Assembly (NCBI GenBank): GCA_947489925.1
Contig: CANLFK010000002.1
Location: forward strand, 1-33,175
DNA: 33,175 nt
Reading direction: 5' to 3'
DNA from: Candidatus Caenarcanales bacterium
GTDB taxonomy: Bacteria; Cyanobacteriota; Vampirovibrionia; Caenarcaniphilales; Caenarcanaceae
How positions within the stretch are numbered: position 1 is the stretch's first letter; every line of letters begins with the position of its first letter. The notes below the pieces were generated by a model. The model ran no database searches, was not told the DNA's origin, and saw only the letters and a list, made by a program, of their open reading frames with translations. A program made the translations under genes and the position numbers. This document shows positions 257-31,895 of the stretch, piece after piece.

Positions 257-1285
257 TTAAAAGGTCTTCTTTTCTTTCACTTCCTTTAGTTTCTCAACCG
301 CACAACACTTTATCAAAGCATTTGCAATATGCCACATTAAAACTGGAGGAACTGCATTTCCAATTGCTCGATATTGTCTGTTTTCTGAAACTACATCCAA
401 TTTGAATGATTCAGGGAATGATTGAATATTTGCTGCTTCTCTAGGTGTAAATCTTCTGTATTTTCCATCCACCATCAAAACCGGGTCAGTTCCGTTCAAA
501 CTCACTTTTGCCAAATGAGAACTAATAGTATTGCAAGGTTGCTCTAAATCTTGAACTCTGCCTTTGTTCATTTTCTCCCGAACACGAAGCATTCCGTCAA
601 CTGCTCTTTGACTAAAAAACCATTTATCGTCTTGGTCTGCTTGTGGGTCAATTACTTGTTTAAGTTTAACTTTTGAGCCATTGAGTGTATTAGGTTGCGG
701 AAATCGAAACTTGAAATAATCATCAAATTCTCTAAAACCAACAATAAACACTCTTTCTCGCTTTTGTGGTACGCCAAATTCAGAAGCATTTAAAAGTTTG
801 TGATGAATGTAATATCCTGCTTTTTCAAATTCTTTTACAATCATTGGAAAAGCTTGCCCTTTGTTTGCTGATAAAAGCCCTTTCACATTTTCGCCAATGA
901 AAAAACGAGGTTTTTTCTCTTTCAAAACATTAACCATTTCAAAAAATAATTTTCCTCTATCGTCTTTATAGCCAAGTCTAGGCGGGTTTTGAGCACTTAT
1001 TGAAAATGATTGACAAGGAAAGCCACCAAGTAAAATATCGTGGTCTGGAATTTTACTCGGTTCAATATCTCTAACATCTTTGGTTTCGCTTTTAAGCTCA
1101 AAATTGCTGTTGTATATAGCAGTTGCATAACTGTCATTATCTGCTGCATATACAACTTCAAAAGGCGATTCTTCAAAATGCTTTCCAAGAAAATTAAAGT
1201 CTCCTTGAATTCCTAAATTCATTCCTCCGCATCCCCAGAATAATGAAGTTACTTTTAGTTTCTTATTTCTAATAGCTTTTCCCAT
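257..1285 (-). CDS. DNA (cytosine-5)-methyltransferase (MTase B of the island)
   Basis: 342-aa ORF with the ordered m5C-MTase motifs: FWGCGG (I), GGFPCQSFS (IV), ENVKGL (VI), QKRERVFIVG (VIII), AIGNAVPP (X). Confidence 0.9.
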   Translation of the reverse strand: MGKAIRNKKLKVTSLFWGCGGMNLGIQGDFNFLGKHFEESPFEVVYAADNDSYATAIYNSNFELKSETKDVRDIEPSKIPDHDILLGGFPCQSFSISAQNPPRLGYKDDRGKLFFEMVNVLKEKKPRFFIGENVKGLLSANKGQAFPMIVKEFEKAGYYIHHKLLNASEFGVPQKRERVFIVGFREFDDYFKFRFPQPNTLNGSKVKLKQVIDPQADQDDKWFFSQRAVDGMLRVREKMNKGRVQDLEQPCNTISSHLAKVSLNGTDPVLMVDGKYRRFTPREAANIQSFPESFKLDVVSENRQYRAIGNAVPPVLMWHIANALIKCCAVEKLKEVKEKKTF

Positions 1286-1871
1286 TGTCCTGATGTTTTA
1301 GAAAATTCAACAACTAAATTTTTATCCACTTTCAAATTCCCTTGTTCATATTGTTTAACAGGGTTTTGAATCATAAATATGTTTTTGCTATCATCATTTA
1401 CTACCAAGTAATAATTGAAATAATTATCGCCCATTGTTTCGGCTGTGTCCCATTCGTTTGGTGTTAGTTTAAAGCGATTATTGTTAATGGCTTTTTCTTG
1501 ACTTCGTTGTTTTTACTTCGATATAGCGTTTCTTCTTTTCTAATTCAACGCTTTGAATATCGTAACCAACCCCAAGCGGAGTAGGGATTTTATTTATTAA
1601 ATGTTGTCTGTTTGATTTGTCTTTGGTTCTCAAATATTCGTGAGCCAAGATTAAACTTTCTCCATAATCTCCAATGATTTTTGTCGGTACTTTTCTGTCG
1701 CCAGTCATTCGAGAATAATATTCTTGAATTAAAGCTGAAATATTTTCTTGCTCTGATTGGTCAAGGTGTGGAGCAAAGGCTTCTATACCATCAAACTGAT
1801 TTACAAATGAAAACCAAGTTTCTTCAACTGCTGAAATTTCAGGATTTGTAACTTTCTTTTTTGAATTTTTT
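1255..1871 (-). pseudogene. DUF3883-type (PD-(D/E)xK-like, NO VEIN C-terminal family) nuclease-domain gene, interrupted by a +1 frameshift in an A5 run
   Basis: The track ORF 1484-1999 ends ...KIIGDYGESLILAHEYL...GVGYDIQSVELEKKKRYIEVKTTKSRKSH*. The next frame continues KAINNNRFKLTPNEWDTAETMGDNYFNYYLVVNDDSKNIFMIQNP...EFSKTSGQWEKLLEIRN* and stops at 1255-1257. Together these reproduce the DUF3883 pattern (GE..l...E, YDI.S, YIEVKTT, f.LT.NEW, Y.lY.V). Removing one A from the coding-strand A5 run (complement of 1492-1496) fuses the two frames. There is no ATG between the GC-rich insert and the domain. Confidence 0.6.
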
Positions 1872-1953
1872 GGCGTGCCCCTACGGGTCGGGCTATCCGT
1901 TCCAAGTCCTCGCTCGTTCCTCGCTGTGGGCTTTCCACTTCTATCCCTCACGC
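1872..1953. repeat. 82-bp GC-rich insert (about 63% G+C by hand count) in an AT-rich context; possible miniature repeat or REP/MITE-like element
   Basis: Sequence: ggcgtgcccctacgggtcgggctatccgttccaagtcctcgctcgttcctcgctgtgggctttccacttctatccctcacgc. It contains two about 20-nt imperfect direct repeats (gggctatccgttccaagtcc / gggctttccacttctatccc). Its ends are short inverted repeats (GCGTG...CACGC). It starts 2 nt after the HNH gene stop codon. Confidence 0.4.
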
Positions 1954-1955
1954 AA

Positions 1956-2723
1956 CTACTTCTGAAAAATAACATCATTGTGATATTCAATAAATTCATC
2001 CCCAGGAAGAAATTTGATTGGTAAATTCATCCTAATATTTTCAAACCTTTTAATTTCAGTTTCAAAAAATCCTTCTTTTGAATATCGTGTTAATTTGTTT
2101 GAAAAAATAACTTCAAAATCTTTGTTAATGCTAATTAACCCTTTGTCAAATGCTCTATCCAATGTAGCTGATAAACAAATTCCATTTGCAGGATTTAATC
2201 TATTCTTTTCATCTTTTGACCAAGGTTTAATATGCGATGCAATCAATAGTTCAGGTATTGTGATGCCTGTTAATGCACAACCAAAAGTATAATTTGACAA
2301 AACAATGCTTCGGAAATAATCTTGGTTTTTTCTTGCTGTTGTTACACGAATTATATTTTCTCCGTTTTTTGTTTCATCTATTTTAATCTCGACATCAATA
2401 GGAATATCTTTAATATCATTTGTTTTCTGTTCGAGTAGTTTTTCACTTTCAACAAATAATTCATCAAAATTTTGAGTAAATTCAACAAACACTTCTTTAT
2501 CTAATTTCCCAATGTTTGTCGCACCTTTTCTCCCTAATAATTTTTGTTTTGGGTCAAGACTTACGAAATTGACTAATTTGTAAGCAATTGCACCTGAGGA
2601 CCTACCGAGTATTTCAGCTAATTTTTTTACTTCAGCATTTCGATTATTGAATTGACCATAAGGTAATTTGCAATAAAGATTAAATGCCAAAATCAATTCA
2701 TCTCTAGTCCAATTGTTTCTCAT
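1956..2723 (-). CDS. HNH-family endonuclease (HNH_2 / COG3183-like putative restriction endonuclease)
   Basis: 255-aa ORF. The N-terminus WTRDELILAFNLYCKLPYGQFNNRNAEVKKLAEILGRSSGAIAYKLVNFVSLDP and the C-terminal core CALTGI...LLIASHIKPWS...NPANGICLSATLDRAFDKGLISI are the pattern I know from HNH_2-type restriction nucleases. Confidence 0.8.
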   Translation of the reverse strand: MRNNWTRDELILAFNLYCKLPYGQFNNRNAEVKKLAEILGRSSGAIAYKLVNFVSLDPKQKLLGRKGATNIGKLDKEVFVEFTQNFDELFVESEKLLEQKTNDIKDIPIDVEIKIDETKNGENIIRVTTARKNQDYFRSIVLSNYTFGCALTGITIPELLIASHIKPWSKDEKNRLNPANGICLSATLDRAFDKGLISINKDFEVIFSNKLTRYSKEGFFETEIKRFENIRMNLPIKFLPGDEFIEYHNDVIFQK

Positions 2724-2910
2724 ACTTAAAATCTATGTAGTGTGTTGCTTCATTATTACAGTCTTTTACTCCGCAAATCAGATTAGCAATTGGTAATTCA
2801 TCCAAAAAATCAGAATCAATATGATTTTCAATACAACTATCGCATATCTGTGACCAAGAACCATTTTCTTCAATCACAATGTCATCAAATTCTATTTCTT
2901 TATGTTTCAT
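2704..2910 (-). CDS. Small Cys-rich hypothetical protein (about 68 aa, possible Cys4 zinc ribbon)
   Basis: An internal ATG at 2910 lies 1 nt after the upstream MTase stop codon (2912-2914). The 3' end overlaps the HNH start by 20 nt, an operon-style packing. The translation contains CDSC...CGVKDC. I recognise no family. Confidence 0.35.
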   Translation of the reverse strand: MKHKEIEFDDIVIEENGSWSQICDSCIENHIDSDFLDELPIANLICGVKDCNNEATHYIDFKYEKQLD

Positions 2911-2911
2911 A

Positions 2912-3934
2912 TTATGCACATTTTTTATATTGGATTTCATATAGAACAGCATTACCAACTTGTTTATATTGACTTGTTTTGCTTCCTAAAAAAATGAAAG
3001 TGTCAGGAAATGATTGAATTCTAGCACTTTCCCTCACCGTTGGCACACGATTAAATTTATAATGAAAATGGTGTCTGTGCCCTGTATCTATTGTGAAACT
3101 TGGTTTTTTACTGTTTAGCCTAGTCCAAGCAATATTTACATTTCGTGTTTTGTGAAGATGTTCGGGTAAGTTTTTGTAATTACCACCATCAGGAACCATA
3201 GAAATAATTTCAATCGTTTGGTCATTGTGGTTTGTAATTTCGTGATTAAACAAACCTTTTGAGCCTTCACGAATTTTTTCTTGAAATTCAGATTTTGCTT
3301 TTAGTGGATATTTTGCTCCGTCTGATATTGATTTTTCAGGTAAATCAGAAATGGCTTCACTTGATGAAACAAATTCAGGGTTTTTAATTTCAGGGAATTT
3401 GAAAACTTCCTTTCCTTTTGTTCCAATAAAAAAGGCTCTTCTTCTGTTTTGGGGAACGCCAAATTCAGATGCTAAAAGTACTTTGTAAACTACATTGTAG
3501 CCCAATCTTTCAAAATCTTCAATGATATTGTCTTTAACAATACCTTTCCCCATTGAAACAATGTTTGGTACGTTTTCCATTAAGAAAACATGCGGTTTAT
3601 AGAATTCTACAAAACTTACAAATGATTTATATAGCTTGTTTCTTTCATCATCTACAATTCTTTTTCCTGCAATAGAAAAACCTTGACAAGGTGGTCCACC
3701 AATAATTATGTCAGCTTTTTTGATTCCTGTTTTTTTGCATAGCTCTTTTGGTGTTTCATTAAATAAGTCTGCAACTAAACCTATTGAACCTTTGTGATTG
3801 TGTTCAAATGTTTTTATGGCATCTTGCCAATGGTCTATACCAAGTACAACATCATAGCCAGCTTCAATAAAGCCGAAAGAAAGACCTCCGCAACCACAGA
3901 ACAAATCTATAACTGTCGGTTTTACTTTACTCAT
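2912..3934 (-). CDS. DNA (cytosine-5)-methyltransferase (MTase A of the island)
   Basis: 340-aa ORF with motifs DLFCGCGG (I), GGPPCQGFS (IV), ENVPNI (VI), QNRRRAFFIG (VIII), QVGNAV (X). Only a 13-aa tail follows motif X. Confidence 0.88.
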   Translation of the reverse strand: MSKVKPTVIDLFCGCGGLSFGFIEAGYDVVLGIDHWQDAIKTFEHNHKGSIGLVADLFNETPKELCKKTGIKKADIIIGGPPCQGFSIAGKRIVDDERNKLYKSFVSFVEFYKPHVFLMENVPNIVSMGKGIVKDNIIEDFERLGYNVVYKVLLASEFGVPQNRRRAFFIGTKGKEVFKFPEIKNPEFVSSSEAISDLPEKSISDGAKYPLKAKSEFQEKIREGSKGLFNHEITNHNDQTIEIISMVPDGGNYKNLPEHLHKTRNVNIAWTRLNSKKPSFTIDTGHRHHFHYKFNRVPTVRESARIQSFPDTFIFLGSKTSQYKQVGNAVLYEIQYKKCA

Positions 3935-3975
3935 TCCTGTTAATTTACTTTTACTCTTTTTTCAGATTCTTTCTT

Positions 3976-4290
3976 TTAGTCCAAGATAACACCGTTTTCG
4001 GTTAAATAATTTTCTAATTCGGTTACGCTAACCACAATACGACCGTCTTCTTTTCTATTTTTAATAAAGCCTTGTCTTCTTAAGGTTGCACCTTGTTTAA
4101 GAGCAAAATTTAAAGATATTTCAGCTTGTCTTGATAATTTGGGCATATTTAAGCCTTCAGGCAATAAAGCTCCGTGTTCGGTCATAACACCGCTATTGAG
4201 AACCAATAAATAAACAGCATATGCAAATCTGGTTTCAGGGGTAAGGTTTGTATCGCTATTTTGTTCGGTTTGCTCGACTTGATATTCCAT
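3976..4290 (-). CDS. Hypothetical protein (104 aa), first gene of the minus-strand island
   Basis: The ORF is co-oriented with MTase A and lies 41 nt upstream of it. I recognise no motif. Confidence 0.4.
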   Translation of the reverse strand: MEYQVEQTEQNSDTNLTPETRFAYAVYLLVLNSGVMTEHGALLPEGLNMPKLSRQAEISLNFALKQGATLRRQGFIKNRKEDGRIVVSVTELENYLTENGVILD

Positions 4291-4332
4291 AAAAAAAACT
4301 AATTACTATATTTGATTATAAATTTTAACAAT

Positions 4333-4959
4333 CTAATAAAGACTTTTGGCTAAATTTTTTAAACCAGAATCAACTTGAGATAAAGTTTTTTCAATTTCAC
4401 CTGAATTATCGATGACAAAATCAACCAAATTTATTTTATTTTCCTGCGGAATTTGAGCTTTTAATCTGGCGGAAACTTCCTGATCTGAAAGGTTGGGATT
4501 GCGTTTTTGAAGTCTTAATTTTTGTATATTTGACTGACAAGAAATTAACCAAATTTTGTCATAATATTTTTGCAAATTATTTTCAAATAATAAAGGAATT
4601 AAATTAATAGCCAATTCAAAACCTTGATCTGATTTTTCCTGAAAGAATTTTTCGGTAATTTCACGGCATTTCGGATGAATAATTTCTTCAATTTGTTTTT
4701 TTAAACTTGAATCAAAAAATAAAAGTTCACCCAGTTTTTGTCGATTAATAAAAGAAATATTTTGGTCTAAATAATTTTCATTAATAATATTATTTGGCTG
4801 GCATAGTTTAATTATTTTAGTGCTTGCTTCATTTGAATGAGAGAGCAAATCATGCACAATATTATCACTGTCAATAATTGGTATTTTAAGCTTATCTAAG
4901 TAATTACCAATTAAAGTTTTTCCGCAAGCGATATTGCCAGTTATAGCCAGTTTAATCAA
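4333..4959 (-). CDS. coaE: Dephospho-CoA kinase
   Basis: 208 aa. The N-terminal P-loop IKLAITGNIACGKT and the overall length and layout are typical of CoaE. It overlaps the upstream thioesterase gene by 8 nt. Confidence 0.8.
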   Translation of the reverse strand: MIKLAITGNIACGKTLIGNYLDKLKIPIIDSDNIVHDLLSHSNEASTKIIKLCQPNNIINENYLDQNISFINRQKLGELLFFDSSLKKQIEEIIHPKCREITEKFFQEKSDQGFELAINLIPLLFENNLQKYYDKIWLISCQSNIQKLRLQKRNPNLSDQEVSARLKAQIPQENKINLVDFVIDNSGEIEKTLSQVDSGLKNLAKSLY

Positions 4960-7728: not shown

Positions 7729-9573
7729 ATGGATATAAATGCTCCCTCGTATGTTAAAAACTCGAAATTAATTAAATGGGTTGAAGAAATAGTGGCTTTA
7801 TGCAAACCGTCAAGTATTTATTGGTGTGATGGCTCTCAGGAAGAATATAATAAATTATGCCAAGAATTAGTTGAAGCTGGAACTTTTAAAAAGCTAAATC
7901 CAGAGAAAAAGCCAAATAGTTTTTTAGCCTTATCTGACCCTTCTGATGTCGCAAGAGTTGAAGATAAAACTTTTATTAATAGTTATAAAAAAGAAGATGC
8001 AGGCCCGACTAATAATTGGATACACCCAAATGAAATGAAAGAAACGCTGAATAAGCTTTATGATGGCTGTATGGCTGGCAGAACTTTATTCGTAATTCCT
8101 TTTAGCATGGGACCAGTCGGTTCTGATATTGCTCAAATTGGCGTAGAAATAAGCGATTCAGCATATGTAGCCGTAAATATGCGAATTATGACTCGTATGG
8201 GCAAAAAAGTAATAGAAGCCCTCGGTGAAAATGATTTTGTTAAAGCCTTGCACTCAGTTGGTTCACCTTTAAAAGCTGGTCAAAAAGATATTCCTTGGCC
8301 TTGCAATCCGACCACTAAATATATTTGTCATTTTCCAGAAGAGAAGCTGATCATGTCATATGGTTCTGGTTATGGCGGAAATGCTTTATTAGGTAAAAAA
8401 TGTTTTGCACTTCGTATTGCTTCTACAATGGCTCGTGCCGAAGGCTGGTTAGCAGAACATATGCTGATTTTGGGTGTTGAGTCTCCAACCAAAGAAAAAA
8501 CATATGTAGCGGCCGCTTTTCCTTCAGCTTGCGGTAAAACTAATTTTGCAATGTTAATTCCACCAAAAGAAATGGACGGCTGGAAAGTTACGACAGTGGG
8601 AGATGATATTGCTTGGCTCAAACCAGACAAAGATGGAAATTTAAGAGCTATTAATCCGGAAGCTGGCTTTTTTGGAGTAGCACCTGGTACTAATTATCAC
8701 ACCAATTCTAATGCCATGGAATCTTTGTCCAAAAATACTATTTTTACTAATGTAGCTTTAACTCCAGATGGTGATGTTTGGTGGGAAGGTTTAACCAAAG
8801 AAGTGCCAGATGGTTTAATTGACTGGACTGGAAAACCATATGATAAAAATTCAGGTAAACCAGCGGCTCATGCTAATTCTCGCTTTACGGCTCCAGCTTC
8901 TCAATGTCCTTGTATTGACTCTGAATGGGAAAATCCAAAAGGTGTTTTAATTGAAGCCTTAATTTTTGGAGGAAGACGGTCTACAACAGTTCCTTTAGTT
9001 TATCAATCATTCAACTGGAATTTTGGTGTTTATATGGCGGCTACCATGGGTTCAGAAACGACAGCCGCCGCTTTTGGTCAGCAAGGTGTTGTCAGAAGAG
9101 ATCCTTTTGCAATGTTACCTTTTATTGGTTATCATGCAGCTGATTACTTTAATCATTGGTTAAACTTTGGTAGAACTTTACCTAATCCTCCAAGAATTTT
9201 TGGTGTAAATTGGTTTCGTAAAGACTCTGAGGGTAAATTCGCTTGGCCTGGTTTTGGCGAAAATATGAGAGTTCTAAAATGGATTGTGGATCGTGTTCAT
9301 GGTCGTTCTTATGCAATTGAAAGTCCTTTAGGATGGGTTCCTCGTTATGAAGCTATTGACTGGAAAGGTTTAGATTTTAGCAAAGAAGAATTTAATACCG
9401 TTATGTCAGTTGATCGTGAAGCTTGGAAGTCTGAGATTGCTGATCATGAATCTTTATTTATGAAACTCTATGATAAATTACCTAAAGAGTTTATCTGGAT
9501 TAGAGAGCTTATAACTTCGGCTTTATGGCGTTCACCTGAAAAATGGGAATTAGCTTCTGAGCATTTGGATTAG
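7729..9573 (+). CDS. pckG: Phosphoenolpyruvate carboxykinase (GTP)
   Basis: 614 aa. Typical GTP-PEPCK blocks are present: YWCDGS, GPTNNW, the kinase-1a FPSACGKTN, and DDIAWLK. Confidence 0.95.
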
Positions 9574-9584
9574 AGTTTAATTTA

Positions 9585-9626
9585 AGTACCCTGATATTTA
9601 ATACTTTGGGGTACTATTTTTATTTT
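9585..9626 (+). terminator. Putative intrinsic terminator downstream of pckG
   Basis: AGTACCC (9585-9591) pairs with GGGTACT (9609-9615) and is followed by atttttatttt. The loop is large (17 nt), so the call is only moderately convincing. Confidence 0.4.
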
Positions 9627-10454
9627 ATGACTATTTCTCCATTATTAATTCAAAGAGCTAAAGCTTTCCGTACCAAAAAGAGTTTGGGGCAGAATTTCCT
9701 TGTTGATTCAGATATTTTGCACACAATCAAAAATTCCTTAAACAGTCCAATTGAAACTAATATAATTGAAATTGGGCCTGGAATTGGCTTTTTGACGGAA
9801 ATTTTGTATAAAGATTTTAAAAATTTAAATGTTATTGACCTTGATAAATACGCACTAGACCGTTTAGACAATTCTAATAAAATAAATATTATTCATGCAG
9901 ATGCTTTGCATTTTGATTTTAATAGTTTGGCTAAGCCCCTGACTGTTATTGGGAATTTACCTTTTAATGTTGGTACTTTAATTTTGATGAATTTTTTGGG
10001 CGAAATAGACAATCCAGATTGGAAAGTATCAAATATCAATGAAATGGTTTTAATGTTTCAACTGGAAGTAGCTCAACGATTAACGGCATCTTCTTCCAGT
10101 AAAGCTTATAATGCACTTAGTATTACAGCTCAATCTAAGGCTGATATTGAGTTTTTATTCGAAGTTCCAGCTCAAGCTTTTTGGCCAATTCCAAAGGTAA
10201 AAGCTGGAATTATTAGAATTAAGCCTAAAAGCAATAATATTTTGCAAACTCTTTCGGAAATAGAATTGAAAAATTTAAAAAAAATTATCAAAATGGCTTT
10301 TTCAACAAGACGCAAAAACTTAAAAAACTCTTTAGCTAATTTATTTACAGTTCAAGACTTTGAAAATTGTCATATTTGTTATACAGAAAGAGCTGAAAAT
10401 TTAGATTTACCTGATTATATTGAATTAAGCAAATATTTAAGCCAAAAGAATTAG
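9627..10454 (+). CDS. rsmA: 16S rRNA (adenine1518/1519-N6)-dimethyltransferase
   Basis: KSLGQNFLVDSDIL, the SAM motif IIEIGPGIGFLT and GNLPFNV are classic KsgA/RsmA. I prefer the ATG at 9627 over the track start at 9606 (TTG), which lies inside the putative pckG terminator. Confidence 0.9.
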   Translation: MTISPLLIQRAKAFRTKKSLGQNFLVDSDILHTIKNSLNSPIETNIIEIGPGIGFLTEILYKDFKNLNVIDLDKYALDRLDNSNKINIIHADALHFDFNSLAKPLTVIGNLPFNVGTLILMNFLGEIDNPDWKVSNINEMVLMFQLEVAQRLTASSSSKAYNALSITAQSKADIEFLFEVPAQAFWPIPKVKAGIIRIKPKSNNILQTLSEIELKNLKKIIKMAFSTRRKNLKNSLANLFTVQDFENCHICYTERAENLDLPDYIELSKYLSQKN

Positions 10455-10507
10455 ATCTTTGAGTCATCAATTGTTAAGCATTTTTAAACAGAGTTTATTA
10501 TAGAATT

Positions 10508-11884
10508 TTGGGTTATATTAAACTAAAAGTGTTTTCTTTGTGCAGCCAATTGAAAAAGTTTTTTCTAATTTTAATTCTAATTTTCATTAGTCCTCTGCGT
10601 CAATTATCTTTAGCTGAGAGTGATTTTACAGAACAGCAAAAAAAAGATATTTCTTCGCTTGAGAGTAGATTCTTTGGCTTAACTTATCCAGCGGACAAAC
10701 CTTCTAGTAGAATATCTAGGATTGAAGAATTAGTTTTTGGACACAATAATAGTCAGAGTACTTTGCCTGAGAGGCTTGTCAAATTAAATAAAGCTACCAA
10801 AGTTGCACAATCATCAGCTCCTTTACCAGAATTACCACCAGATGATGAAATTGCTAATCAACAAAAAGAACAAATATCACCCAAAAATAATAATCAAATT
10901 GCCAAAGCACCCAATAATACACAAAATAAACAAATAATTTCTTTAAACAACCTAGATGATTTAAGCCAAGAAATGCTTCAAATTATTAATCAGGAGCGTT
11001 CATTAAGATCTTTACCAAATTTAAATACTGATCAAATTGCTTACAGAACGGCTTATCAACAAGCTAATTATTTAATTCAGACAAGGCAATTTTCGCATTA
11101 TAGTTTGCAAAATAAAAATCCAGACCAAAGATATACTGAACAAAGTGGAGATGGAAGAATTGAAGAATTAGTAGAAGGTTTTTTTGCTTCGGTTAATGAT
11201 AAAGGTATTGTTATTCCGATAGAAATAAACCGTGAAATTCCTCATCAATTAATGGATGCTATTTTAAAAGTACCAGACAAAGCAGATATAATTTTTAATA
11301 GTTTAGCTAATGGTATTGGTATAAGTTTTATTTTAGCCCCAGATAAAAGCCAATTAGTGGTAGTAGCTGAAATTAGTGTTGATTATGGAGATTTAGCTAT
11401 TCTTCCTCCTAAGGCTTCAATTTCGGAAGATATTGGTGTTAGCGGTAGCCTGAGCCGAGGTTATAAATTTGCTTGGGTTGGAATCTCAAAGTCTGATTTA
11501 GATGAAGAGGAAAAGTCCGAAACGGAAGCTTCTGCTTATTTTGCTCCGATTGATCAAGTAATTTATTTAAACAAATCTGGAGACAGAGCCAAAAATATAG
11601 CTAAAGCAGGTGGAGCAATATTGGCTATGGTAGCCGCTCCTTTTACATATGGGGCTAGTGTTTTAATTGCTAATGTTTTAATGCAAAGTATTGCCCAAAC
11701 CTATCAATCTCAAGATGTTGAAGTTAGAGATGGAGCTAAAGCGGATATGGGTGGTGGAAACTTTAATAGTAGTATTACTTTGGGTGAATGGGGAAAAGGC
11801 ATTTATTATATTACTGTTTGGGCTATTCCTCCTTCCGAAAAAAAACCAGTAATTATTAGCAGAAGAGCTGTAAAAGTAATTTAG
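10508..11884 (+). CDS. Secreted or membrane-anchored CAP/SCP (YkwD-like) domain protein
   Basis: 458 aa. There is an N-terminal signal-like segment KKFFLILILIFISPLRQLSLAE. The central part, MLQIINQERSLRSLPNL..D.IAYRTAYQQANYL..T.QFSHYS, resembles the CAP domain. There is also a C-terminal hydrophobic helix. The start codon is uncertain (non-ATG; alternatives up to 10550). Confidence 0.5.
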   Translation: MGYIKLKVFSLCSQLKKFFLILILIFISPLRQLSLAESDFTEQQKKDISSLESRFFGLTYPADKPSSRISRIEELVFGHNNSQSTLPERLVKLNKATKVAQSSAPLPELPPDDEIANQQKEQISPKNNNQIAKAPNNTQNKQIISLNNLDDLSQEMLQIINQERSLRSLPNLNTDQIAYRTAYQQANYLIQTRQFSHYSLQNKNPDQRYTEQSGDGRIEELVEGFFASVNDKGIVIPIEINREIPHQLMDAILKVPDKADIIFNSLANGIGISFILAPDKSQLVVVAEISVDYGDLAILPPKASISEDIGVSGSLSRGYKFAWVGISKSDLDEEEKSETEASAYFAPIDQVIYLNKSGDRAKNIAKAGGAILAMVAAPFTYGASVLIANVLMQSIAQTYQSQDVEVRDGAKADMGGGNFNSSITLGEWGKGIYYITVWAIPPSEKKPVIISRRAVKVI

Positions 11885-12116
11885 TATAAAAGTAGCACCA
11901 AAAAAGGGCAGGATTTATGTGTTATTTGGGGCTCTCAATAATTATCTTTTGTTTATTCAAATGAAGTTTTAATATTCAACTTTCCTGTCTAATTTCAAGG
12001 GGTTGGGGCTTTTAAAGCAAAATTCTTTAGTAAAAAGACTCTCTCAATTAGTTACTTCAGAGTTTTGTACCGTAGTCAGCTTAAAATTATCTATTTTTCT
12101 TGATCACTGCCGTTTT

Positions 12117-12692
12117 TTACAACTTATTTTGAGATCTGTGAGCTTGAATAATTTGTATAATGCTTTGAGCAGTTTCTTCAATTTTGCCTTCTTCATTTAT
12201 GACTAAATTTTCAAATTGATTTATTTCTTGTAATTCTTGTTTTGATTTTTCCACTCGAGCTAATATTTTTTCTTCTGATTCAGTCGATCTTTCTTTTAAT
12301 CGTTTATATAAAACCTCAATTGAAGGCGGAGCCAAAAAGATAAATAAGGCATTTGGCAAAATTTGTTTTATTTGCTTAGCACCTTCCACTTCAATTTCTA
12401 AAATAATATCTTTATTAGCTTTAACTTGATCTTCAATATATTTTTTTGGTGTTCCGTAAAAATTGCCGACAAATTCAGCCCATTCAATTAATTCACCTTT
12501 TTCAATCATTTGTTTAAATTCTTGCTTGCTTTTAAAAAAATAATTTATACCTTCTATTTCTCCAGCTCTTTTTGGTCTAGTAGTGGCTGAAACCGAAAAA
12601 ACTAAATTATCCAAATCTTGAAAGACTTTTTTTAAAACAGTTCCTTTACCAACTCCCGAAGGACCAACTATTACAATCAGATTTCCTGCCAT
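12117..12692 (-). CDS. gmk: Guanylate kinase
   Basis: 191 aa. It shows IVIVGPSGVGKGT, SATTRPKRAGEIEGINYFF and GNFYGTP. Confidence 0.95.
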   Translation of the reverse strand: MAGNLIVIVGPSGVGKGTVLKKVFQDLDNLVFSVSATTRPKRAGEIEGINYFFKSKQEFKQMIEKGELIEWAEFVGNFYGTPKKYIEDQVKANKDIILEIEVEGAKQIKQILPNALFIFLAPPSIEVLYKRLKERSTESEEKILARVEKSKQELQEINQFENLVINEEGKIEETAQSIIQIIQAHRSQNKL

Positions 12693-12698
12693 TTTTTA

Positions 12699-13448
12699 TT
12701 AAATTACCTCAAGTTTGCACTCATTATTTAAAGCAATTTCAGTGCCAATTTTTTTACCAAGCACAAGATCCATTAAAACGCCTTCTCGGGCAAAATCAAA
12801 AACTCTTATTGGTATTTTATTATCACGACAAATCGACACCGCCGCCGCATCCATTACTTTGTAGTTTTCGCTTAAAACCTTTTCAAAACTTAAAGTTTCA
12901 AATCTTTGAGCATTTTGATCTTGCCTTGGATCAGCATTATAAACTCCATCAACACCGTTTTTTGCCATTAATAAAACAGATGCTTCTATTTCTGCCGCTC
13001 TTAGGGCCGCTGTTGTGTCGGTTGTGAAAAATGGATTACCTGTTCCACCCCCAAAAATAACAACTCTCTTTTTTTCTAAATGTCTAATGGCTTTGCGTCT
13101 AATATAAGGTTCTGCAACCGAAGGCATTTCAATCGCTGTTTGTACTCGGGTTGGAATACCGCTTCTTTCTAAAACTCCTTGCAAAATCAAACTATTCATA
13201 ATGGTGGCTAGCATTCCAACATAATCAGCGGCGGCTCGATCCATTCCTAACTGAACGCTTGAATTTAAACCTCTAAATATATTTCCACCGCCAACTACCA
13301 AAGTAATTTCAACGCCTAATTTATAAATATCACCAATTTCTTTTGCCACTCTTTCAATAACTAAAGGCTCAATTCCAAAACCTTTTTCCCCAGTTAAAGC
13401 TTCACCACTCAGTTTAAGCAAAATTCTTTTATAAACTAAATTTGTCAT
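12699..13448 (-). CDS. pyrH: UMP kinase
   Basis: 249 aa. It shows [23 protein letters not shown] and [17 protein letters not shown]. Confidence 0.95.
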
Positions 13449-20344: not shown

Positions 20345-22078
20345 TTAAGCATTTACCGTTAATTGTTTCTTCCAGAGCTTTTGATAAATTTCACTATTTT
20401 TCAATAAATAATCACTATTTCCAGACTCAATACAAGCTCCTTTTTCAATAATATAAATTTGTTCAGCTTGTCTTAAAGACGAAATACGATGAGTAATTAA
20501 AATTAAAGTTTGTTTTTGTTCTTTTAAATATTCTTGTAATTCATTTAAGATTTTTAAGCCAATTTCATTATCTACGCTCGACAAGGCATCATCCAAAATT
20601 AAAATGCGTGGTTTTTTGATAATTGCTCTAGCTAATGCAATTCTTTGAGCTTGCCCACCCGATAAAGAAACTCCTTTTTCACCGACTAAAGTATTGTAAG
20701 CTTCTGGCATTTTACTAATTTCTGTGTGTATTTGAGCAATCTCAGAGGCTTTTATCATTTCCTCCTCTGAAGCTCCAGAGCCTAATAAAATATTGTCTTT
20801 AATGCTTTTATTAAATAAAAATGTTTCTTGCGGTATTAAAGCAACTGATTGTCTTAGAGAGCTTAAAGAATAATTATTTATATCTTGTTCATCAATAAAA
20901 ATCGAATTTGGTTTTATATCAATTAATCGCATTAAAGCATTAGCCAAAGTACTTTTTCCAGAGCCAATTAAACCGACAATACCAACAAATTTTCCACCTT
21001 TAATTTCGATATTTAAATTATTTAAGGCTTTTTGTTCAGTGTCTGGGAATTGAAAGTCTAAATTTTGAATTTTAATATTAGCTTCTTTTACTACGATTAA
21101 AGCCGGGTTAGCAGAATTATCAATAATATGTGCTTTTTCATCAAAGACTTCTTTTATTCTTTGTACGCTAACAGCCCCTCTCTGAAAAATGGTAATTAAC
21201 CAGCCCATAATAGCGGTGGGGAATAAAAGCCTTTCTAGGTAAATTAAAAAAGCCGCAATTGTGCCAGCTGACAAAAGCCCTTTGCTGACATAAAAAAGCA
21301 ATATAAAAAAACTAATACCTCGAGCAAGTTCCATAATTGGCCAAATAATACCTCTCCAGCGGGCTAATTCGGTTGAAGTATTTAAATATTTATTATTAAC
21401 TTTTTCAAATCTTTCAATTTCTCGGGTTTCTTGGCTATAAGATTTAATTACTTGTATGCCATTTAAATCTTCTTCGATGAATGAGCTTAATGAGCCTAAT
21501 TGTTCTTGAGCTTCAATTTGTTTGGTTTTGAGTTGTAGGCTTAAATGCCTGACTAACATAAATATGGGTAAATAACCTAGCAAAATATAAAAAGTTAGTG
21601 ATGCATTGAGCTTAAACATAATCGGTAAAGTCAAAAGATAAACCCAGACAATATTGACAATATTTAATAAACCAAAACCCATCATTTGCCTAATAGCTAA
21701 AATATCATTGGTCGCACGGGAAATTAAATCGCCAATTCTTTGTGTACTAAAATAAGCTAAATCAAGCTTTAATAAATGTTCATAAAAGTTTTGTTTCTGC
21801 TCTGATTCAACACGCCGACCAATACCAAATAATACAATTCGTGATGCTGTGCGAATACCAGCCATTAAGAGAGCTAAAATTATAACCAAACTTAAATTAA
21901 ATAAAATATTTTGATCTATTTTTAAATTATTTTTGACTAAATTATCAATTAAAGACTTGATCAGTAAAGGTATATAAACGCCTAGTCCATTTGTGGCGAT
22001 TAGCAAAAAAGTACCCAAAGAAATTTCTTTTGCGTAAAGCTTAACCTGATTAAAAAAGAATTGAACTGAAATAGACAT
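20345..22078 (-). CDS. ABC transporter, fused permease/ATP-binding protein (MsbA/multidrug-exporter type)
   Basis: 577 aa. The N-terminal half has six hydrophobic helices. Walker A is GLIGSGKST, the signature is LSGGQAQR, and Walker B is ILILDDALS. Confidence 0.9.
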   Translation of the reverse strand: MSISVQFFFNQVKLYAKEISLGTFLLIATNGLGVYIPLLIKSLIDNLVKNNLKIDQNILFNLSLVIILALLMAGIRTASRIVLFGIGRRVESEQKQNFYEHLLKLDLAYFSTQRIGDLISRATNDILAIRQMMGFGLLNIVNIVWVYLLTLPIMFKLNASLTFYILLGYLPIFMLVRHLSLQLKTKQIEAQEQLGSLSSFIEEDLNGIQVIKSYSQETREIERFEKVNNKYLNTSTELARWRGIIWPIMELARGISFFILLFYVSKGLLSAGTIAAFLIYLERLLFPTAIMGWLITIFQRGAVSVQRIKEVFDEKAHIIDNSANPALIVVKEANIKIQNLDFQFPDTEQKALNNLNIEIKGGKFVGIVGLIGSGKSTLANALMRLIDIKPNSIFIDEQDINNYSLSSLRQSVALIPQETFLFNKSIKDNILLGSGASEEEMIKASEIAQIHTEISKMPEAYNTLVGEKGVSLSGGQAQRIALARAIIKKPRILILDDALSSVDNEIGLKILNELQEYLKEQKQTLILITHRISSLRQAEQIYIIEKGACIESGNSDYLLKNSEIYQKLWKKQLTVNA

Positions 22079-22083
22079 TTTTT
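22045..22083. repeat. 39-bp direct repeat, copy A (covers the ATG and the first 11 codons of the ABC exporter gene)
   Basis: cctgattaaaaaagaattgaacTgaaatagacatttttt. It is identical to 22447-22485 except for one base. Confidence 0.9.
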
Positions 22084-22446: not shown

Positions 22447-22485
22447 CCTGATTAAAAAAGAATTGAACCGAAATAGACATTTTTT
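22447..22485. repeat. 39-bp direct repeat, copy B (relic copy of the ABC exporter 5' end, now a 12-codon mini-ORF upstream of hicB)
   Basis: cctgattaaaaaagaattgaacCgaaatagacatttttt. On the minus strand it reads ATG TCT ATT TCG GTT CAA TTC TTT TTT AAT CAG GAC TAA (22480-22442). The stop lies 9 nt before the hicB ATG. Confidence 0.9.
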
Positions 22486-31606: not shown

Positions 31607-31895
31607 ATTACTATAACAATCCCAGACTAAAATAGACCTTGAATATTTTATGACTTAATAAACCCCCCAGCCCCCTTGACAGAGGGAGTTCTGGAATTTT
31701 TATTGAAAAACTATCAAGTTTAAAGCTAGACTTAAACCATCAGATAAGCTTTTAACTGATTAAAAAATATAATCTTGGGAATACTAAAACATTTAGTTCC
31801 CCCTGTCAAGGGGGCGAAGGGGGTTTAGCAAATGAAATTCTTTAGAAACTAATTAAACACTAGTTCACTTTATTTCGGGATTGCTATAATAAAAT
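31607..31895. repeat. Nested imperfect inverted repeat (about 290 bp) with GC-rich inner arms; MITE-like element or structured RNA
   Basis: The inner arms are taaaccccccagcccccttgacagagggag (31659-31688) and ttccccctgtcaagggggcgaagggggttta (31797-31827), which are reverse complements apart from small indels. The outer arms are attactataacaatccc (31607-31623) and gggattgctataat (31877-31890). The right inner arm itself contains the hairpin CCCCCT-gtca-AGGGGG. Confidence 0.6.

Follow-up and report, generated by a model that had tools for sequence, protein, structure and literature searches.

The occurrence of two cytosine methylase genes and two nuclease genes in one tightly packed block raises the question of which nuclease the methylases belong to. 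The block lies on the minus strand of a 33,175-nt stretch of DNA from a Candidatus Caenarcanales bacterium (contig CANLFK010000002.1 of GCA_947489925.1; the whole stretch is referred to as the window). Between two 5-methylcytosine (m5C) methylase genes, M1 (MTase A) and M2 (MTase B), it carries a small open reading frame (ORF) for a protein with four cysteines (Cys4), a gene for an HNH_2 endonuclease, a GC-rich element and a damaged DUF3883 nuclease gene, R′. One of two proposals in a preliminary description of this DNA was a Type IIS-like restriction-modification (R-M) system in which HNH would be the main nuclease and the DUF3883 gene an extra, decaying one. Comparison with related loci and contigs, labeled L001 and so on, indicates that these roles are reversed. 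The block descends from a BpuJI-type Type IIS system, in which M1 and M2 surround a single nuclease, R; the DUF3883 gene is the original cognate nuclease and HNH the newcomer. The reading to which we lean, with modest confidence, is that an HNH module has replaced the recognition domain of R in this BpuJI-derived block and that HNH is an autonomous, Type IV-like nuclease.

Origin of the Paired Methylases

When the DUF3883 remnant is read across its frameshift, it leads to homologues that combine PF11564 (BpuJI_N) with PF13020 (NOV_C). The genes of these BpuJI-like homologues adjoin m5C methylase genes in three unrelated contigs (L009, L010, and L011). The order is M1, BpuJI-like R, M2 in L009 (GCA_013298025.1) and L010, both of which are free of HNH, and R, M2 in L011, where the genes lie at the contig end. 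M1 of the window (2912–3934, minus strand; 340 aa, PF00145 9.5e-71), the R′ remnant and M2 (257–1285, minus strand; 342 aa, PF00145 1.8e-74, TIGR00675) are 72%, 74%, and 77.5% identical to their counterparts in L009 and 68%, 65%, and 73% identical to those in L010, and M2 is 67% identical to its counterpart in L011. The two methylases of the window share only ∼30% identity with each other. Because loci that lack HNH have a BpuJI-like nuclease between orthologues of M1 and M2, the paired methylases belong to the DUF3883 gene and not to HNH. The same two loci support the earlier proposal that the methylases form a strand-specific pair of the Type IIS kind, and the joint divergence of M1, R′, and M2 contradicts its alternative, a head-to-tail fusion of two R-M units.

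In L009 the N-terminal nuclease ORF is similar to the solved recognition domain of R.BpuJI (2vla/5hlt, E ∼1e-12) and to Pfam BpuJI_N (1.5e-79), and the reconstructed full-length BpuJI-like R has ∼478 aa. In the BpuJI system itself, from Bacillus pumilus, bpuJIR is flanked by bpuJIM1 and bpuJIM2, both encoding m5C methylases, and the recognition site, CCCGT, is asymmetric (PMC1874659). The part of BpuJI that begins at T303, its C-terminal domain, forms dimers and is by itself an end-directed nuclease (PMC1874659). The nuclease genes of the HNH-free loci are also inactivated, that of L009 (4327–5771) by one frameshift and that of L010 (4452–5882) by one nonsense codon, and both methylases are intact in each. 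From these two cases, loss of the BpuJI-like nuclease by a single lesion seems to be common.

Breakpoints of the Inserted Module

The homology of M1 to the HNH-free M1 proteins stops after GNAV, at position 2945. From there the window reads LYEIQYKKCA-stop, a new tail of 10 aa encoded on the minus strand at 2915–2944. At the same end the HNH-free orthologues read GNAVPPLLAKAIAQEI... and are of the GNAVPPLLAK... type, and past GNAV the orthologous M1 sequence runs on as PPLLAKAIAQEI.... The statement that both methylases have the full set of motifs I–X consequently needs amending for MTase A, in which motif X is non-canonical (GNAV-LYEIQYKKCA). On the other side, the sequence becomes homologous to R again directly past the GC-rich element, near residue 275 of ∼478.

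The segment between these two points, ∼1866–2944 (∼1.08 kb), comprises the new M1 tail, the 68-aa Cys4 ORF, the HNH gene and the GC-rich element, and it stands in place of ∼16 codons at the end of M1 and ∼275 at the start of R. With them R has lost its entire BpuJI_N recognition domain, and no BpuJI_N-coding sequence is left in the window. Alignment to related sequences shows the breakpoints, the loss of the recognition domain and the frameshift in R′.

Two other accounts of this segment were considered and rejected. HNH and DUF3883 might have been one gene split by the GC-rich insert, and the length of the element (≡ 1 mod 3) is compatible with such a split, but the listed HNH homologues end at ∼255 aa and the DUF3883 homologues carry BpuJI_N upstream. 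The small ORF might have belonged to MTase A as a C-terminal extension set off by a frameshift; none of the methylase homologues is extended in this way, and the small protein occurs as a separate ORF only.

The Nuclease Remnant

R′ consists of two minus-strand pieces. The N-terminal piece, which carries DUF3883/NOV_C (PF13020 4.6e-7), lies at 1484–1871; the ORF as called (1484–1999, 171 aa) reads through the GC-rich repeat. The C-terminal piece (1255–1434, 59 aa) matches positions 175–256 of the BpuJI-like R profile. In alignment A1, R′ of the window begins at about residue 55 of the 256-aa C-terminal ORF. It keeps the AHJR-type PD-(D/E)XK catalytic domain with its D...ExK motif (GYD...IEVK), and the remnant corresponds to the complete catalytic/dimerization domain.

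A 1-nt insertion interrupts R′ four codons past the catalytic Lys, in a run of A at 1492–1496 (minus strand), and removal of one A joins the 59-aa and the upstream pieces into a continuous frame. Because three relatives (runs X5, X10, and X17) are one base shorter in this A-run, the frameshift is an insertion in the window lineage. Four independent metagenome assemblies (L001–L004) yield exactly these genes, with DUF3883 split in the same way, so that the frameshift is real and not a sequencing artifact. An apparent internal deletion of MTase B in one of these (L001) proved to be a 100-N scaffold gap. The frameshift in the DUF3883 gene had been recognized in the preliminary description, which had rightly seen one of the two nuclease genes as decaying; the extra A and the loss of ∼275 N-terminal codons are to be added to it.

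In L021 R′ is an unbroken ORF of 227 aa that starts at the same breakpoint as in the window. Between the two copies, the ratio of nonsynonymous to synonymous rates (dN/dS) is 0.22, with 20.2 nonsynonymous and 20.8 synonymous changes against a neutral expectation of 80% nonsynonymous (binomial p 6.6e-6). The shortfall of nonsynonymous changes shows that the truncated R′ was kept by selection after the insertion and indicates purifying selection on R′ in the relatives of the window.

Spread, Variation and Selection

A check of whether HNH, Cys4, and DUF3883 genes occur together elsewhere had been suggested, and the full order (HTH_3)–M1–Cys4 ORF–HNH–repeat–R′–M2 was found to recur in L021, a Cytophagaceae metagenome-assembled genome with an HNH 92% identical to that of the window, and in L022 (Chryseobacterium aquaticum KCTC 12483; HNH 73% identical), where R′ is further shortened. 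The block (∼272–3935) is found again, at ∼90% identity, in contigs from soil, sludge, hot springs, and freshwater; those that are ≥88% alike cover only the span from 272/304 to 3914/3935, and the similarity of M2 to these foreign contigs stops at 272–304, within its last codons. Because the foreign contigs cover that span only, the mobile unit runs from M2 to M1 and excludes elbB and the 104-aa ORF next to M1. The composite is old, these alignments indicate that it moves as one unit, and its closest relatives, together with the Flavo-1-type repeat described below, point to Bacteroidota.

A controller-like HTH_3 gene lies upstream of M1 in L005, L014, L019, L021, L022, and L023 and is absent from the HNH-free L009 and L010. 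M1 is intact in the window, L005, L014, L021, and L022. In L019, L023, and L072 it stops at or before motif X; in L016 it ends at residue 281, and in L018 IS200 interrupts it. Intact M2 genes are present in the window and L022; a stop codon falls in motif I of M2 in L021, and L005, L014, L016, and L024 carry truncated forms. R′ and the 5′ part of M2 are replaced by a Bro-N gene in L005 (6774–8239) and L014 (5772–7513) and by a DUF1016/YhcG gene in L016 (5813–7419). The middle of the M1...M2 frame has thus been swapped more than once. Downstream of the L005 copy (8457–12768) are a gene for an OLD-family AAA/TOPRIM nuclease, a 343-aa ORF and an AEP-TOTE/helicase gene, so that this copy sits in a defense island.

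Values of dN/dS are low for M1 (0.04–0.16), the Cys4 ORF (0.06–0.18), HNH (0.06–0.12), and M2 (0.04–0.09), which indicates purifying selection on all four. The target-recognition region of M1 (window 3185–3634) has only 67%–77% DNA identity to L021, compared with ∼90%–96% elsewhere. This difference indicates mosaic recombination in M1, and the mosaic allele could have a changed specificity.

The Cys4 Protein and the Gene Junctions

The Cys4 ORF (2704–2910, minus strand; 68 aa, CxxC...CxxxxC) has no Pfam match. All four Cys are kept in seven loci (the window, L005, L014, L016, L021, L022, and L024), in which it always lies directly upstream of HNH and overlaps it. The family is restricted to the clade with ≥59% HNH identity, and no relatives were detected outside it. 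Its conservation and constraint mark it as a real gene. The junctions that had been called operon-like are so: the gap between MTase A and the Cys4 ORF is 1 nt, the Cys4 ORF overlaps HNH by 20 nt, and the overlap of the DUF3883 gene with MTase B, given as ∼30 nt, is 31 nt. The 20-nt overlap possibly allows translational coupling. That the Cys4 protein assists or regulates HNH is conjecture.

The GC-Rich Element

The 90-bp GC-rich element at the HNH/R′ junction (∼1872–1961, minus strand) has a GC content of 0.63 against a background of ∼0.31. Its presence had been noted, and it can be further identified as a Flavo-1-type dispersed repeat: the full Rfam model RF01705 aligns to it at 34.8 bits (E 7.7e-6), below the gathering score of 42. 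At gathering thresholds Rfam gave no match in the window or in seven loci, and the folding energy of the repeat was no better than that of shuffled sequence (z −0.25 and +0.29). In other metagenomes the depth rises several-fold and contigs break at the element, which shows that it is a multicopy dispersed repeat.

A covariance model (R1) was built from five copies of the repeat and searched against 929 kb of HNH-containing loci. It scores the element of the window at 76.7 bits and yielded 14 matches, nine of which lie within 25 nt of the HNH ORF. The repeat is antisense and just upstream of HNH in L019, L023, L034, and L072, and sense and just downstream in the window, L021, L022, L036, and L099. 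In L019, L023, and L072 the methylase is interrupted by the repeat at motif X or ahead of it, and its ORF continues into the repeat. In L016 a pair of repeats in inverted arrangement brackets the whole island. The association of repeat and HNH is far beyond chance, although shared ancestry makes the independent events fewer than the matches.

The HNH Nuclease

The HNH_2 endonuclease (1956–2723, minus strand; 255 aa, PF13391 4e-14) consists of a helical N-terminal domain (residues 1–100) and the HNH domain. Homologues numbered 3581, and the 120 listed are all ∼255 aa, which indicates that the protein is complete and stands alone. Residues H164, N177, N180, D189, and D193 are invariant in alignment A2. 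Two PADLOC models named HNH match over the full length, PDLC04132 (1.4e-81) and PDLC03546 (“Type II restriction enzyme”; 4.7e-41). In a phmmer search of the PDB the only solved sequence relative was the nuclease domain of VcaM4I (6yex, 2.8e-13); Foldseek returned VcaM4I (6yex, prob 0.99) and TagI (6ghs, prob 0.90), both of which are modification-dependent enzymes. The AlphaFold2 model of residues 1–108 is all-helical, with a predicted local distance difference test score (pLDDT) of 91. No match to Vsr (PF03852) was found in the domain scan of the protein.

A Recurrent Replacement at Methylase/Nuclease Junctions

The family was surveyed in 80 species-representative loci. The gene immediately upstream of HNH is an m5C methylase in nine of 76 loci and the gene downstream a DNA_methylase in three of 74; among the 25 upstream-neighbor families listed there is no N6/N4 or other methylase family. 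Nucleases found downstream are of the MvaI/BcnI (three), HpaII (two), NgoFVII (two), Eco47II (one), and DUF559/MTES_1575 (two) types. An m5C methylase gene or stump adjoins HNH in ∼22 of the 80 loci, and an R-M gene or remnant of any kind in ∼27; the rest, about two-thirds, have no R-M neighbor. The family is therefore not consistently linked to methylases, which tells against the earlier view of HNH as a Type II R-M nuclease.

Where R-M neighbors do occur, the methylase tends to survive as its 5′ part and the nuclease as its 3′ part. In hidden Markov model positions, the methylase keeps 1–32 in L036, 5–46 in L071, 5–69 in L056, 5–102 in L032, and 25–214 in L078. The HpaII-like nuclease keeps 143–354 of 359 in L062 and 110–358 in L086, and the MvaI/BcnI-like nuclease 47–227 in L095 and 24–227 in L036. 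In L072 the order is methylase, HNH, and an intact NgoFVII-like nuclease gene; in L019 it is methylase, repeat, HNH, the stump of a second methylase, and a complete NgoFVII-like nuclease gene. The HNH ORF is intact despite a truncated or broken methylase in L016, L018, L019, L023, L032, L036, L056, L071, L072, L078, and L104. Taken together, these loci indicate that HNH has repeatedly come to occupy the slot formed by the 3′ end of the methylase and the 5′ end of the nuclease, in at least five kinds of cytosine-methylase systems.

One such locus is in Neisseria gonorrhoeae (L104; NZ_CP119142.1, 369365–380099), where pheS and pheT enclose genes for Vsr and for an m5C methylase truncated at motif IV, a 113-aa ORF, and an HNH homologue (249 aa, 40% identity). 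In N. meningitidis the same site holds the V/M/R (Vsr, methylase, nuclease) system NmeDI (PMC7973814). R.NmeDI was considered as a characterized homologue of HNH and rejected, since it is a different protein of 351 aa. The PLSDB gene table has no feature at the gonococcal pheS–pheT insert, and the record, of 2.17 Mb, is labeled a plasmid.

Function of the Composite Block

As the alignments show, a module of small ORF, HNH, and Flavo-1-type repeat has taken the place of the M1 tail and the recognition domain of R in an M1–R–M2 system. According to the reading that we favor, the original sequence-specific restriction arm would thereby have been lost, and M1 and M2 probably still methylate their asymmetric site. 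HNH would act alone, binding DNA through its helical N terminus and cutting through its VcaM4I/TagI-type HNH domain. It would most likely be independent of the methylases and Type IV-like, directed against foreign, perhaps modified, DNA and sparing host DNA methylated by M1 and M2, with the Cys4 protein as its probable partner or regulator. Across the family, the module would repeatedly replace the 3′ end of a methylase and the 5′ end of a nuclease and then spread, with the surviving stumps serving as homology arms. The autonomy of HNH is suggested by the solitude of the family as a whole, the conservation of both domains across contexts, the survival of HNH after loss of the methylase, and its Type IV relatives.

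Several observations weigh against this reading. Compared by fold with the PDB, the N-terminal domain resembled nothing significantly and gave only weak matches to Myb, SANT, and homeodomain folds, and domain scans of HNH found no SRA, EVE, or PUA reader domain. HNH_2 includes the true Type IIS enzymes HphI and AlwI (PMC5714182). The main counterargument is selection: after the insertion M1 and M2 are under strong purifying selection, and R′ was under it too, which is easier to understand if restriction still depends on them. To this is added the HTH_3 gene upstream of M1 in relatives, which together with the abutting or overlapping genes looks like a working controller–methylase–nuclease unit. 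The family is mostly free of methylases, yet the window locus keeps two intact m5C methylases, and a 5mC-dependent nuclease made from one operon with active m5C methylases would endanger the cell if their motif lay within its target.

These points lead to the strongest alternative, a working hybrid R-M system in which HNH took over site recognition, Cys4 and the unbroken R′ are possible helpers, and M1 and M2 protect the host. It comes close to the “Type IIS-like R-M with an extra nuclease” of the preliminary description, and we regard it as possible but the less probable account. Selection after the insertion extends to all of M1, M2, the Cys4 ORF, HNH, and R′, and the block passes in one piece between different hosts and habitats. 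HTH_3 genes accompany M1 in six HNH loci and are missing from the HNH-free L009 and L010; the order Vsr–methylase–x–HNH in L016 resembles V-M-R systems; and the full-length match to the PADLOC “Type II restriction enzyme” HNH model (E 4.7e-41) agrees with a restriction role, as does the architecture of AlwI, a BpuJI_N-like domain joined to HNH_2 (PMC5714182) within a nuclease family that includes Type IIS enzymes. Against it stand the solitude of most family members and an N-terminal domain that is highly conserved across contexts with at least five R-M families of differing specificity. HNH also survives truncation or breakage of M1 (L016, L018, L019, L023, L072, and L104) and persists where M2 is destroyed (L005, L014, L016, and L024) or has a nonsense codon (L021), and R′ of the window is frameshifted.

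A related proposal, which we consider doubtful, makes Flavo-1 the end or junction of a mobile HNH module and lets Cys4, the Myb-like HNH, and the freed, end-directed AHJR domain of R′, retained by selection, restrict jointly under the cover of M1 and M2. If true, the module would invade cytosine-methylase R-M operons and delete the methylase 3′ and nuclease 5′ ends in one step; in the BpuJI-type case the cut would have fallen at the domain boundary and produced a nuclease set of three parts.

It is unlikely that HNH and the Flavo-1-type repeat form a selfish, homing-like module that targets methylase/nuclease junctions, perhaps the coding sequence of motif X. Nine of the 14 Flavo-1-like matches in the 929 kb abut HNH within 25 nt in consistent orientation, and the same repeat–HNH unit stands behind unrelated methylases (L034 compared with L023 and L072); several of the matches share ancestry, however, so that the independent events are fewer. 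Breakpoints in the methylase cluster near motifs IX–X (the window, L014, L019, L022, L023, and L072), but others fall at motif I or IV (L036, L071, and L104). In no locus is HNH directly flanked by repeats at both ends, neither an empty site nor a target-site duplication was seen, and HNH_2 is not a known clade of homing endonucleases. A selfish role could coexist with the other readings; it is the weaker candidate, as is a Vsr-like role.

In the latter, HNH would be an analogue of Vsr that nicks the T:G mismatches left by deamination of 5-methylcytosine. Its vsr-like position, the presence of an m5C methylase or stump next to it in ∼22 of 80 loci, far above chance, and methylase partners of at least five specificities, which argue for a generic consequence of m5C, would fit such an enzyme. 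True Vsr genes nevertheless co-occur with HNH (L016, L018, L099, L104, and others), a repair enzyme would be purposeless in the many loci where the neighboring methylase is destroyed, and HNH resembles neither Vsr nor any known mismatch nuclease, which leaves this role very improbable. That two independent R-M units (MTase A with HNH, and DUF3883 with MTase B) were joined by chance is scarcely credible, since HNH-free L009 and L010 have both methylase orthologues around one BpuJI-like nuclease, M1, R′, and M2 have diverged in parallel, R′ without a recognition domain cannot form a specific R-M pair with M2, and the joint loss of R′ and the 5′ part of M2 in L005, L014, and L016, where M1, the Cys4 ORF, and HNH stay together, is explained by single replacement events (Bro-N, DUF1016).

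The BpuJI-derived block has several implications. It exemplifies the rebuilding of a defense locus: within a conserved two-methylase frame, the recognition half of one nuclease has given way to another nuclease module, and Bacteroidota of lakes, soil, sludge, and hot springs have come to share the composite. Cytosine-methylase R-M systems of at least five types, among them the one at pheS–pheT of N. gonorrhoeae, are dead or half dead where members of the HNH family are found in them, and this recurrence hints that a solitary nuclease and R-M systems are systematically in conflict or that one takes over the other. The orphan Flavo-1 motif gains a concrete genomic association that is open to testing. 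For annotation, “two methylases plus HNH” should not be filed here as a simple HNH-based Type IIS system.

Flanking Genes and Other Repeats

The seven minus-strand elements that had been described between elbB and coaE all lie there in the order given. The last of them, the 104-aa ORF (3976–4290, minus strand; no Pfam match), had been counted as part of the island but lies outside the mobile block and is a neighboring host gene; its homologues are few, and none is near a methylase. In the window no gene for a helix-turn-helix (HTH) controller lies upstream of M1, the 104-aa ORF being there instead, with no HTH match above noise. It was considered as a divergent controller protein and rejected on that score (best E 0.23), on the methylase-free contexts of its homologues, and on its position outside the mobile block. 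A contig of the same lake study, L101, matches positions 4331–4106 of the window at 99.6% identity and diverges fully at 4105/4106, inside this ORF; the result is a 121-aa chimeric ORF and, after it, a different gene, so that a second strain-variable junction lies to the left of the R-M block.

Beyond the 104-aa ORF is coaE (4333–4959; 208 aa, PF01121). On the other flank only the 5′ end of the ElbB/DJ-1-type gene is present (1–199); it starts at ∼199 and leaves the left end of the window. Two further repeats were seen in the window. Positions 31660–31687 and 31798–31825 form a 28-nt GC-rich inverted repeat, 82% complementary, around a 110-nt AT-rich spacer; it resembles a miniature inverted-repeat transposable element or a large hairpin, and its sequence is unrelated to the Flavo-1-type element. 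A 39-nt direct repeat (22045–22083 and 22447–22485; 97% identical, copies 402 nt apart) lies at and just past the 5′ end of a 577-aa minus-strand ORF (20345–22078).

Comparison with Known Systems

Each component of the block is of a known kind. The earlier judgment that the arrangement matches no described system is still fair, since no counterpart of the composite was found in the libraries and literature searched; nor do these describe the selected R′ remnant, the recurrent polar replacement of methylase and nuclease ends, or the adjacency to Flavo-1. The element of the window resembles Flavo-1 (RF01705) in its alignment to the full model and as a multicopy element of Bacteroidota. It differs in forming a recombination junction and in being read through by the R′ ORF.

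Like V-M-R and dcm-vsr systems such as NmeDI, the HNH loci have a small nuclease gene tightly behind or overlapping an m5C methylase, and Vsr is a frequent neighbor. HNH itself lacks the Vsr fold, and it replaces the methylase and nuclease instead of joining them. With HphI, AlwI, and BbrI, enzymes of systems that have an asymmetric site and two methylase activities, HNH shares the Pfam nuclease family, and the combination of a BpuJI_N-like domain with HNH_2 in AlwI shows that the two modules are interchangeable in nature. In contrast to these enzymes, HNH of the window has a different, small helical N terminus and belongs to a family without consistent methylase linkage.

The HNH_2-type nuclease domain is nearest to those of VcaM4I and TagI, and most members of the HNH family are solitary. 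PcaRCII of Pectobacterium carotovorum, a solitary 5mC-dependent enzyme, combines an hTRF1-like three-helix N terminus with a VcaM4I/TagI-like HNH domain (PMC8989522); the likeness of a helical N-terminal domain followed by a C-terminal HNH domain is drawn from this published description only. HNH of the window differs from this group in that it has no SRA, EVE, or PUA reader and lies in an operon with two apparently active m5C methylases.

The closest relative of the block as a whole is the BpuJI system, with which it shares two m5C methylase genes around one nuclease gene; in the HNH-free relatives this nuclease, like that of BpuJI, pairs BpuJI_N for recognition with an AHJR/NOV_C domain for catalysis. 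The identity of the window proteins to B. pumilus BpuJI itself is low. The block departs from BpuJI in that the recognition domain (∼275 codons) has given way to a foreign HNH module and R′ is frameshifted.

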